Origin: a virus | Taxonomy: Duplodnaviria; Heunggongvirae; Uroviricota; Caudoviricetes | IMG/VR virus record: IMGVR_UViG_2713896799_000023 | Length of the DNA stretch: 64,000 bases | Reading direction: 5' to 3' (one strand) | In this document: positions 39,001-42,000 of the stretch, piece by piece | Position numbering within the stretch: position 1 is the stretch's first letter | Layout: the number at the start of each line of letters is the position of its first letter | Position numbers: made by a program

Positions 39001-42000
39001 ATCTTTCTCTTTCATGTACTCCAGCATTACAGCGTTGCGCTCCGCCTCCAGATTCGCCAGACCTTGCTGAATAAGCTCAGCCATCCAGTTGAAAGCCTGA
39101 ATGTACGCTTCCTTAAAGGTCATAGCAGCCTTCCCCGTAAAACCAAATACCAACATCGTCCAACCGTCTTTTGTCATTCGATATATGGGCTGGGGTTTAC
39201 CGTTCTGTAACTCATTGTTTTCATAGCAAAGCGCAAAATTGCGCTCTGCAAATTCTTTTGAGCATTGTTGAACAACGGCTCTTGTTTTCCGCAATACATC
39301 TTTGTGTTCTTTGCCAAATGCTACGGCAACCTTTCGGGTATCCGTCACCGGCTCGTTGCCTGTCACAAAAACAAGATCTCGAAAATCGATGCCGTTAACG
39401 ATAGTTGGATAATTCATCAGTGCACACCTTTTAGTGATGAACCTTGTCACACAGGATTCCGGCCCACAGAAAGGCACCGATCACCAAACCGGCATCCTCA
39501 AGGGTCATCCTGAAAGGTTCTGTGTTCATAAGTCGCGCGTGTGAAGCGCGTTTACTGCGGACATAAAAAAGCCCCGTATCGCGAGGCTCATTAAATTGAC
39601 TTTGTGATTTGCAAAAAAATTATTTCAGGCATTGCGTCCTGATGTATTCCTGCAGGTAGTTAACCTGCGCAGTTATCTTGTCGATTCCACTTCTGAGACG
39701 GTAATAATTGAGTTCAGCATCTGCTGTAAGTCCTGGGCTTTCTCCATCGCCCATGCTGCTGGCTCCGGTCGTTGACTTTGCACAGGTGGCGGCGACTTGC
39801 AGGCGCTTACGCCCAGCAGAAACATCAGCACGGAGACTTTCGATAGTCGCATTAGCATCAGCAAGCTCCTTTGTGTATCTGGCGTCAAGTTCTGCTACAT
39901 CACGTTGCCGCTTCTGCATATCTGCGATGATGGATGTGGCTTTATCGCGCTGCTCTTTGTAAGCGATGGCGTTATCACGGTAATGATTCAGCCCCAGACT
40001 AAGCGCACCACAGACCACCAGCAGAATAACGGTAAACGCGGAAAGCATTCGGTTTATGCTCACCCCACCAGCCCTGCCGAAGTCAACGCCATCCAGTTTA
40101 TGGAAAGAAAAAGAACAACCAGCATTAGTGAAAATGAAATACCGACGATTACACAAAGGCCCTTCGCCAGCGTTATGAGTTTATCCGATATCATTAGCCA
40201 CCACTCCATCAATCCGCCTTTGTTATTTTCCCTTTGCCTGTATCAGCCAGGACAAAATCAATCAGCAGATTCGCTTCGTTTATCAATGTGCGGATTTTTG
40301 ATACATGCGCGGCTTTAACCTGTTTCCACTCATTCAGCCCGGTAGCAAACACACTGGCAATGTTTTTATCCCGTTTCATGTCAGCGCAGGCCTGATTGAG
40401 TTCTTCCATCACACTCATTCGACGGGGATTAACGACACCCCCCTTCGTCCAGTATTCATAGAGAACATCGTCGCACTCTTCCTGATACTGGATTACCTTG
40501 TCGCGGATTTCGGGTTTTACTTTGTTGGGATTGATGGTTTGTAACCAGCCTGCAAGTTTTCGAAGTGGCAGGGACACCATATTGCGTCGTTTCCCATCCT
40601 CAGCAACCATAACGATTTCCGTTATAGTTGACGCAAAACGCTGTCTTAACTTAGCCAACTGTGATTGCCAGGCCAGCCCCATCCCCGCAACGACAGGTTT
40701 CATGGGAACGTATGGCTCACCGTTATGGTTAACCACATAAAGAGAATCGCCGTGAAACGGCACGGTCATCATATTCATCGGTTATTTCCTTTTAGTGATG
40801 AACCCTGCGCACAGGAATAACCAGCCCAAAGAGGGTTAACCAGACCACTGCCGGTTATCCACCAGGGCTCATCCTGAAAGGTTCTTTGGTTTATTTACGC
40901 TTGTGCGAAGCGCAGAAATGACAAAGACACCATTACGGTGCCTCAGCGTGAAACAATCTTCCTGACTTTATTCACTTGCATTTTGCCAGTTCGCAGGATT
41001 TCGTGTTATCCGTCCGCGTGAGCAAACGTCATTTTTCAGCAAAATATTCTGCTACCTGTCGATACCCCAGCATGCCAGCGCACTCTCCTGGTCGCGACGG
41101 GATACCTGACCGTAGCAATTATTTGAGCGGATACGGCAGTCTCTGCCACCGTCCTTAATCCACCAGCGAATCGCTTCACACGCTCCCCTGCGATCGCCTG
41201 CATTAATTCGTTTATAAAACGTCGACGGGAAACACTTACCGGGGCCAATGTTGTAAGGACAGAATGACGCGATCCCCGCTTTCTGAGGTTCGGTCAGTGG
41301 CACTCTGATGTTTTTCGCCACCCATGCCAGCGCCTTATCACGTTCAATGGCGTTAACCTGGTCGCATTTTTCCTTCGACAACTTCATGCCGGGGACGACA
41401 AGCTTACCATCCACCTGGGTGGCACCACGGCAGATGGTCCAGATACCCACACCATCACGGTATGCCGTGGTGTGGTTGCCTTCCTTTTCATCCAGAAACT
41501 GGTCGAGGATTTCAGGCGCAGAAGCACCTGCGGCAATCAGCGCCAGAACGGCAGCCGATAAACCATAGCGGAGTTTCCTGCTCATCAGCTTACTCTCCCC
41601 GTGCCGCCTTACGCCTGTCCTCTCTGATTTTGAAATACAGGTTCGTCAGGTACGTCAGCAGACCAAACAGCAGACTCCCCAGCACGCCTATTGCCGCCCA
41701 CTGAGACGGGGAAACCCTGTCCAGCAACTGCAGGAACCAGTAGCCCGTTCCCACCGCTGACGTGGTGTATGACACACCTGTTGTGATTTTTTCCATCTGG
41801 TTCATACCCCGCCTCCCGCAATCCGGAAGCTCACAACAATAAAAAAGACCACCGGCACACACCGATGGTCCCTGACGCATGCTTACATCATCATGTCGCT
41901 GTCCGGTGTGGGGTCACCGCTATCTGAAGCACTCCCCTCACCCGCGATGCCTTCCGGCTCCGGAGCTGCCGGTGCGCCCAGCAGTTCATCCAGAATGGCA

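Follow-up and report, generated by a model that had tools for sequence, protein, structure and literature searches.

Antirepressor genes are classically under antisense-RNA control, and other phage genes are governed by the structure of their own message: in the alternative structures of the lambda cIII mRNA (Lambda_thermo, RF01804) and in the RNase III-sensitive leader of lambda N, the leader occludes or exposes the ribosome-binding site. In the IsrK/orf45-anrP system of Salmonella Gifsy-1 (Hershko-Shalev et al. 2016), the prophage antirepressor mRNA is reported to be translationally inactive owing to its leader structure and to need activation at the RNA level. Morons, in the Juhala/Hendrix definition, are extra genes that sit between conserved genes of a phage and bring a promoter and a terminator of their own. 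Here we analyse a stretch of 64,000 nucleotides (nt) from the IMG/VR virus record IMGVR_UViG_2713896799_000023 (Caudoviricetes), referred to below as the window, in which the genes rha and ant are each preceded by a copy of the same leader motif. Judged by the way its homologues vary, the conserved blocks of this motif are the paired strands of one folded RNA of ~130 nt in the 5' untranslated region (5' UTR), and we consider it probable that the motif acts in cis to control the translation of the gene behind it. In size and intricacy the element exceeds what was first suspected, and its spread is far wider.

Two leader copies and their predicted fold

Pairwise alignment of the regions ahead of rha and ant showed two strongly conserved end blocks around a divergent middle, namely the repeats D1 (39412-39446 versus 40773-40807, 80% identity, spacing 1361 nt) and D6 (39499-39524 versus 40863-40888, 88% identity, spacing 1364 nt). 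The block spacings of the two copies, A ahead of rha and B ahead of ant, are 3 nt apart. A search of the whole 64-kb window with a covariance model built from homologues (cmsearch) returned exactly two matches and nothing else, both of which end 9 nt ahead of the ATG of the gene behind them:

39424..39556, minus strand: leader motif copy A, whole model match (135.6 bits, E=1.3e-28)
40785..40920, minus strand: leader motif copy B, whole model match (114.4 bits, E=6.9e-24)

The repeat ahead of rha and ant is real and, at E=1e-28 and 7e-24 in round figures, far above chance, which bears out the blocks in common order that the original prediction had described from the sequence and answers the pairwise alignment for which it had called. 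The conserved unit reaches ~25-30 nt further than the coordinates predicted. The CGCG-rich hairpin said to follow the blocks is present in both copies (39534-39550 and 40896-40914), but lies upstream of the blocks on the transcribed strand and is part of the motif.

The motif comprises a hairpin (P0), two helices (P1 and P2) and two pseudoknots (PK1 and PK2), and all five elements covary among homologues. Their positions in the two copies, including that of the Shine-Dalgarno sequence (SD), are as follows:

39534..39550, minus strand: P0 hairpin of copy A (CGCGC-TTCACAC-GCGCG), 4/5 stem pairs changed on both sides among homologues
39539-39544, minus strand: PK2 5' strand of copy A, the P0 loop bases TCACAC, 97% paired, 6/6 pairs changed on both sides
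39518..39524, minus strand: PK1 5' strand of copy A, called a (CACAGAA), abutting P1 and pairing with 39465-39471
39499..39517, minus strand: P1 5' strand of copy A (CCTTTCAGGATGACCCTTG), with the anti-SD CCTTT at 39513-39517
39489..39498, minus strand: P2 5' strand of copy A (AGGATGCCGG), 7/9 P2 pairs changed on both sides
39465..39471, minus strand: PK1 3' strand of copy A, called a' (TTCTGTG), in the P2 apical loop, 2 nt ahead of the P2 3' strand
39453..39462, minus strand: P2 3' strand of copy A (CCGGAATCCT), supported by covariation and cognate pairing
39447..39452, minus strand: internal loop GTGTGA between P2 and P1 of copy A, the PK2 3' strand
39427..39446, minus strand: P1 3' strand of copy A (CAAGGTTCATCACTAAAAGG), holding the SD AAAGG at 39427-39431
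40896..40914, minus strand: P0 hairpin of copy B, loop core CGCAC (40903-40907)
40903-40907 and 40808-40812, minus strand: PK2 of copy B, CGCAC pairing with GTGCG
40883..40889, minus strand: PK1 5' strand of copy B (CCAAAGA), pairing with TCTTTGG at 40826-40832
40863..40881, minus strand: P1 5' strand of copy B (CCTTTCAGGATGAGCCCTG)
40788..40807, minus strand: P1 3' strand of copy B, with the SD AAAGG at 40788-40792
40813..40862, minus strand: P2 of copy B, in which GTGGATAACCGG (40851-40862) pairs with CTGGTTATTCCT (40813-40824) around the apical loop and a'

P1 is formed by the two conserved end blocks, which are mutually complementary, its consensus CCUUUCAGGAUGA(N)CC pairing with GG(N)UCAUC(A)CUAAAAGG. 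P2 (AGGAU-GCCGG with CCGG-AAUCC in copy A) extends P1 across an asymmetric internal loop. PK1 joins the 7-8 nt directly 5' of P1 to a part of the P2 apical loop that stops 2 nt short of the P2 3' strand. In PK2, the P0 loop, C-N-C-N-C, is joined to the internal loop of 5-6 nt, G-N-G-N-G, that separates P2 from P1. The base of P1 adjoining the SD end consists of 5 base pairs (bp), a near-invariant C.A mismatch, 2 bp and a bulge. Few unpaired nucleotides of the motif are strongly conserved.

We assessed these helices in 108 distinct homologues, using a covariance-model alignment (A5) and a trimmed, structure-blind MAFFT alignment (A4). On A5 (108 rows), P0, P1, P2 and PK1 together had 92.8% of cells paired, compared with 27-48% in slid registers, with 29/40 pairs changed on both sides and a covariation of 0.276 against 0.03-0.05; none of 500 shuffles reached the observed values. 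On A4, the same set had 90.3% of cells paired (31-49% slid), 18/40 pairs changed on both sides and a covariation of 0.168 (0.03-0.06 slid), again with 0/500 shuffles except for the pair-type count (182/500). PK2 is absent from the alignment model, its columns being unpaired there, and gave 97% of cells paired on A5 (13-66% slid), every one of its six pairs changed on both sides and a covariation of 0.367 (<=0.058 slid), with 0/500 shuffles except for the pair-type count (317/500). The corresponding values on A4 were 97.8% (11-67% slid), 2/6 pairs and 0.340 (<=0.064 slid), with 0/500 shuffles for cells paired and covariation. Each of the two variable positions of PK2 occurs with three or four Watson-Crick pair types. 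For P1, placed in a fixed register from both anchors, 18 pairs were ~100% canonical in 88 distinct sequences, with exchanges of the types A-U/G-C, U-A/G-C, G-C/U-A/A-U and C-G/G-C, and RNAalifold recovered this helix independently on a plain MAFFT alignment. A long-flank MAFFT alignment (A2) misaligned the subtypes in its central part, and RNAalifold gave P1 and only part of P2 there. For P2, cognate partners pair better than non-cognate ones.

More telling than the cell counts are the many distinct haplotypes of PK1 and PK2. At a fixed position, the homologues carry 17 different complementary a/a' versions of PK1, including CACAGAA/UUCUGUG, CCAAAGA/UCUUUGG, CUCAGAA/UUCUGAG, CCGUAGA/UCUACGG, CCCCGAG/CUCGGGG, GAAAGU/ACUUUC and CCACCGAG/CUCGGUGG, while PK2 occurs as CACAC/GUGUG, CGCAC/GUGCG, CUCAC/GUGAG, CGCUC/GAGCG, CACCC/GGGUG and CGCCC/GGGCG. 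Furthermore, the divergent copies found by the model break the search pattern yet keep all helices, with the SD and anti-SD changing together (CCUG/CAGG, CCUUA/UAGG, CUUAG/CUAAG). At interior pairs, G-U far outnumbers A-C, for example by 18:0 and 27:0 at two pairs, and because G-U is tolerated there and A-C is not, the folded molecule would be RNA of the gene-sense strand and not a DNA site. All-against-all column covariation on A5, which is noisy from sequence relatedness, gave no further convincing helix. The covariation of the helices in >100 homologues, with the ribosome-binding site inside one of them, strongly supports the earlier suggestion of a structured 5' UTR that gives these genes their own regulation.

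In all copies, the P1 3' strand ends in the 5 nt of the SD, whose partner in the common form is the CCUUU with which P1 begins. Between the SD and the start codon the spacing is short and normal (9 nt in each of the two window copies), in agreement with the annotated starts. The full-length minimum-free-energy fold, predicted at 37 C, is a rod of P1 and P2 that buries the SD (-47 to -75 kcal/mol), and the 5' part alone, up to a', is predicted to fold with PK1 as the closing helix. For the P2 5' strand there are two similar candidate partners downstream, one proximal (X') and one distal (X''), and in duplex-energy tests both show a preference of ~3 kcal/mol for cognate over non-cognate pairing. 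The proximal hairpin X:X' was rejected as a fixed helix, having only 81.5% of its cells paired on A4 and a poor register, and may be an alternative pairing.

The P22 copy of the motif is accompanied by an annotation problem. The annotated start of P22 rha ('orf201', L172:2076-2681, 39575-40180 of the P22 record) falls inside the leader motif (L172:2002-2136), and an ATG with a proper SD at L172:2146 gives an N-terminus like that of other Rha proteins. From these sequence features, the start of P22 rha has probably been annotated ~23 codons too far upstream. A 203-codon ORF (open reading frame) starting with GTG in the window (38866-39477) is the same start artefact.

Setting of the leader and its distribution

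The window is a Stx2a phage of E. coli O104:H4, 100% identical to P13374/phiON-2011 over the 2.9 kb tested. All of its relevant genes lie on the minus strand, in the order holin, lysozyme, ant, a 50-codon ORF, Rz, rha, terS and terL:

41805..41590, minus strand: S21-type holin
41585..41052, minus strand: lysozyme gene
40209..40778, minus strand: cargo gene ant, 189 aa, domains P22_AR_N and ORF11CD3
40081..39620, minus strand: Rz
38866..39417, minus strand: cargo gene rha, 183 aa, domains Phage_pRha and ORF11CD3
40924..40944, minus strand: terminator-like hairpin behind the lysozyme gene and ahead of copy B (GAGGCACCGTAATGGTGTCTT), T-rich at its tail
39569..39589, minus strand: terminator-like hairpin ahead of copy A (GAGCCTCGCGATACGGGGCTT), followed by a T-run at 39561-39568, between the Rz stop and copy A

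Domain content and gene order agree with the identities and positions originally given to rha and ant as genes that interrupt or follow the lysis cassette, with ant placed between the lysozyme gene and Rz, and rha between Rz and terS. The N-terminal domains of Rha and Ant are unrelated and the C-terminal ORF11CD3 domain is common to both; the leader at one side and ORF11CD3 at the other could frame the recombinational exchange of N-terminal DNA-binding modules. The 50-codon ORF (40060-40212, minus strand) overlaps the ant stop just ahead of Rz and has a very hydrophobic product, MMEWWLMISDKLITLAKGLCVIVGISFSLMLVVLFLSINWMALTSAGLVG, known in annotation as hypothetical only (ORF53). In terS, a 12-nt tandem repeat at 38386-38437 encodes repeats of an acidic/histidine stretch of the DHEIDH type, close to the N-terminal third of the product.

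The terminator-like hairpin is a general companion of the leader: 92/108 distinct upstream flanks contain a hairpin and T-run of the intrinsic-terminator type, mostly ending within ~18 nt of P0, and the sequences of these terminators vary between lineages. No terminator was found downstream of the motif, and a simple consensus scan of 38700-42000 found no sigma-70-like promoter on the minus (gene) strand. A promoter of the leader was also considered and was rejected as far as such a scan allows; the spacing between terminator and P0 leaves no room for it.

The genes behind the leader belong to the unrelated families Phage_pRha, KilA-N, P22_AR_N, AntA, ANT/KilAC, HNH_3, TerB and P63C. The tie to antirepressor-type genes that had been proposed at the outset does not hold, as the leader also precedes HNH endonuclease and TerB-like genes. 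Most of the upstream neighbours that could be assigned to Pfam encode Rz (13), an endolysin (7), a Q antiterminator (7) or tail-assembly functions, or belong to another cassette; about half of 74 upstream ORFs matched no family. Related phages carry other cargo or none at the ant and rha sites, and the position of the leader varies among phages: it occurs after Rz, in the gap between lysozyme and Rz, between Q and the lysis genes, or inside the tail region. Several loci have more than one copy, with three in L102 (1356-1493, 3838-3973, 9822-9948) and two each in L015, L021, L023, L025, L040, L046, L087, L116, L118, L137, L142, L143 and L161. Such cassettes are sometimes directly in tandem, as in L015, where a leader with an HNH gene is followed by a leader with a TerB-like gene. 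Terminator, leader and gene thus behave as a portable cassette. Judged by the neighbour genes, it lies mainly in late regions downstream of Q, where terminators are read through.

BLAST found the leader in >300 phage records, including Stx phages, P22-like Salmonella phages and Klebsiella phages, and a pattern scan of IMG/VR gave at least 120 loci. In P22, gene 15/Rz1 and rha are separated by a divergent copy (55.5 bits, E=8e-12). A scan of one genome per species yielded 39 matches, of which 35 were real and 4 due to chance; the real ones came almost entirely from Enterobacterales, among them Xenorhabdus, Pantoea, Erwinia, Edwardsiella, Providencia, Serratia, Yersinia, Tatumella, Sodalis, Citrobacter, Enterobacter and Salmonella, plus one Cobetia genome. 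Across complete E. coli genomes, there were 2962 leader places in 874/5426 genomes (16%; median 3, maximum 10 per genome), with up to 10 copies in enterohaemorrhagic E. coli (EHEC), and no annotated feature lies under any leader in the complete RefSeq E. coli genomes. Two matches of the scan by species, on a 700-nt contig of Kocuria sabuli (L140) and a 392-nt contig of Xanthomonas pisi (L159), are identical to Klebsiella- or E. coli-phage subtypes, and these are most likely assembly contamination and not true hosts. A natural recombinant leader also occurs (L061:2514-2645, IMGVR_UViG_2534682139_000009), with P0 and the PK1 5' strand of the copy-B subtype and the rest of another subtype; the two parts meet precisely where a and P1 adjoin, which leaves both pseudoknots mismatched, and the ant gene behind it is truncated (132 versus 189 codons).

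In a search of Rfam 15 (4227 covariance models), nothing overlapped the motif at E<=1 in 36000-44500 or at E<=10 in 39390-39600, nor did the motif match in five loci with other subtypes. Sub-threshold matches lay on the terminator hairpin after Rz, to the 3' end of GcvB (10.8 bits, 39563-39600, minus strand) and to asX2 (27 bits, 39511-39589, plus strand), and a weak Trp_leader match over the neighbouring terminator was far below threshold; these are probably generic resemblances to terminators. A literature search by block sequence and keyword found no relevant paper, and as far as these searches tell the motif is apparently undescribed.

Proposed role of the leader and the alternatives

As a translational control element of the following gene, which is how we would read the motif, the folded leader should block binding of the 30S subunit because the SD pairs with CCUUU inside P1, and translation of the cargo would be low or conditional. 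Since what lies directly upstream is a terminator-like hairpin and not a promoter, the cargo is probably transcribed by read-through from the Q-antiterminated late operon; the same terminator would keep the cargo gene silent in lysogens. Candidates for relief of the repression are a kinetic window before the P1 3' strand is made, cleavage by RNase III, a protein or a small molecule, and the C.A mismatch and bulge by the SD end of P1 suggest a helix end that is deliberately weakened and can be opened. Restraint of the cargo would fit its biology, since it consists of antirepressor-like regulators and since Rha is said to harm phage growth without IHF, with IHF reported to 'regulate rha' (Pfam description). 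By eye, no IHF consensus site was found in the leader, and the conservation of CsrA-like GGA motifs in P1 does not extend to the Klebsiella and divergent subtypes.

Several points weigh against this interpretation. We infer repression of translation from the SD pairing alone, and P1 and P2 are predicted to be so stable that translation of the cargo is hard to account for. Most homologues were gathered with a pattern that fixes three blocks, including the SD and anti-SD, so that invariance there is partly by construction and is tested by only ~15 divergent copies found by the model; the homologues are also related to each other, and cell counts overstate the number of independent events. PK1 may belong to one fold with P1, P2 and PK2, or to an alternative or co-transcriptional conformer. 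A straight rod of P1 and P2 would hold the PK1 strands ~75 Å apart and so exclude PK1, whereas a fold-back model, with P2 and PK1 stacked across a 2-nt joint alongside P1 and PK2 as a third helix at the P1/P2 junction, would allow them to coexist; in the common subtypes, the length of P2 plus PK1 (~18 bp) is close to that of P1. Finally, the scarcity of conserved unpaired nucleotides argues against a small-molecule pocket.

A bolder proposal, which we hold only tentatively, is that the motif is a new class of sensing RNA, riboswitch-like or protein-responsive, in which the double pseudoknot gates the translation of any plugged-in accessory gene according to the state of the cell or of the infection. 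It would then be a portable cassette for regulated expression, common to temperate phages of Enterobacterales. The segment of P2 that can pair with X' or X'' would be the switching element, and the signal might come from a nucleotide second messenger, from Mg2+, from a host factor (IHF, RNase III) or from a phage late protein. It is unlikely, though worth weighing, that the leader is instead an element of RNA processing or stability, with the P1 and P2 rod as an RNase III site or a compact fold that blocks RNase E. Such an element would release the mRNA of the cargo from the long late transcript by cleavage and make it more stable, with a cut within P1 freeing the SD, and it has precedents for RNase III in the lambda N leader and the T7 early mRNAs. 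The near-perfect 28-bp duplex of P1 and P2 is longer than two helical turns, its internal loop and bulge are conserved, and the motif always lies in polycistronic late regions, right behind a terminator hairpin able to protect the upstream 3' end; two covarying pseudoknots, however, would be needless in a simple RNase III substrate. Cleavage by RNase III can be combined with translational control, as its activating step.

The remaining alternatives are considerably less probable. That the leader acts as DNA, either as the common promoter/operator put forward in the original prediction or as a linker kept only for recombinational swapping of cassettes, appears very improbable to us: although exchangeable cassettes with differing cargo have the element as their 5' boundary and the recombinant L061 has its junction at the a/P1 border, compensatory changes keep five helices paired, two of them long-range, for which a linker or operator would not select. 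The promoter/operator is further disfavoured by the wobble pattern, which fits RNA, by the lack of a sigma-70-like site on the gene strand in the consensus scan and by the position of the leader behind a terminator-like hairpin. We give hardly any credence to a small gene, that is, to the 32-codon ORF of copy A (39529..39431, MNTEPFRMTLEDAGLVIGAFLWAGILCDKVHH) encoding a hydrophobic or leader peptide whose translation is coupled to that of rha. This ORF does span the leader and stops at a TAA inside CTAAAAGG just ahead of the SD, and the lengths of copies A and B differ by 3 nt, but copy B has an in-frame stop after 5 codons, an ATG ORF ending at the TAA occurs in 30/108 distinct leaders with differing peptides and is missing from 67/108, and leader lengths (86 to 94 nt) are not multiples of three apart; a conserved small ORF is largely refuted by the interruption in copy B and its retention in only 30/108 homologues. 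An antisense small RNA (sRNA) from the plus strand that blocks the ribosome-binding site of ant or rha, as P22 sar or P1 c4 do, would suit antirepressor genes and might be seen in the weak asX2 match on that strand (27 bits against a gathering score of 70); as this match lies over the terminator region and not the motif, the wobble asymmetry favours the gene-sense strand, neither the sar nor the C4 model matches, and the only promoter-like site on the plus strand (39596-39623) points away from the leader, we regard such an RNA as most improbable here.

If the leader does restrain translation, this would be relevant to the control of its cargo. Proteins of the antirepressor, Rha and KilA-N types are able to throw prophage switches or to impair the growth of the phage itself, and the classic phenotype of Rha in IHF-deficient hosts reportedly shows the need to restrain rha expression; to our knowledge, the mechanism of this restraint was never established. 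An RNA module that hides the ribosome-binding site is a concrete and testable mechanism for such genes, and it would explain how they can reside inside a strongly transcribed late operon, beside Shiga-toxin and lysis genes. The motif is abundant, structurally elaborate and unannotated, and would be a useful addition to RNA family databases, with P22 as a ready experimental system.

Comparison with known systems

The motif is a member of none of the systems that it most resembles: riboswitches, the lambda cIII and N leaders, sar/c4 and IsrK-anrP. With the pseudoknotted translational riboswitches (preQ1-II, SAM-II/V), it has in common a cis-acting fold in the 5' UTR, covarying helices with pseudoknots and an SD inside a helix; its fold is of a structured, aptamer type supported by covariation, and access to the SD would be coupled to that fold. 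It differs from them in having no Rfam 15 match, few conserved unpaired nucleotides and a functionally mixed cargo of unrelated families in place of one ligand-related pathway. As for RNA thermometers (ROSE and fourU types), in which the SD lies in a short imperfect helix that melts between 30 and 42 C, the base of P1 is weak, yet for the fold as a whole -47 to -75 kcal/mol is predicted (37 C).

The lambda cIII and N leaders are unrelated to the motif in sequence and architecture, without an Rfam match between them, and each serves a single early gene, whereas the motif is portable, mainly late, and has two pseudoknots and an upstream terminator. P22 sar-ant and P1/P7 c4-icd-ant are alike in that the ribosome-binding site of an antirepressor gene is occluded at the RNA level in a temperate phage, but sar and c4 use a separate complementary RNA, while in the motif the strand that occludes belongs to the message itself and is found 90 nt further upstream. 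Neither a match to the sar and C4 models nor a suitable plus-strand promoter was found, and the wobbles fit the sense strand. The sequence also differs from that of IsrK-anrP, with no match to IsrK (RF01394), and activation in that system is reportedly by a short trans-acting isoform.

Among the sRNAs of EHEC prophages, HnrS is a multicopy RNA of 66 nt that is encoded in late regions and ends at its own terminator (PMC13502914). The similar copy number suggested that the motif could be identical with HnrS; the window has no complementarity to the 3' end of mazF, and the two appear to be different elements. The text of Tree et al. 2014 (PMC4104026) makes no mention of antirepressor or lysis-region sRNAs.

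As morons do, ant and rha stand as inserted genes that interrupt or follow the lysis cassette. In contrast to morons, they have no promoter of their own in the consensus scan, their terminator lies upstream of the gene and not downstream, and their conserved 5' feature is a structured leader. This suggests that accessory cassettes may travel with their own terminator and translation-control unit, which would change how morons should be defined and searched for.

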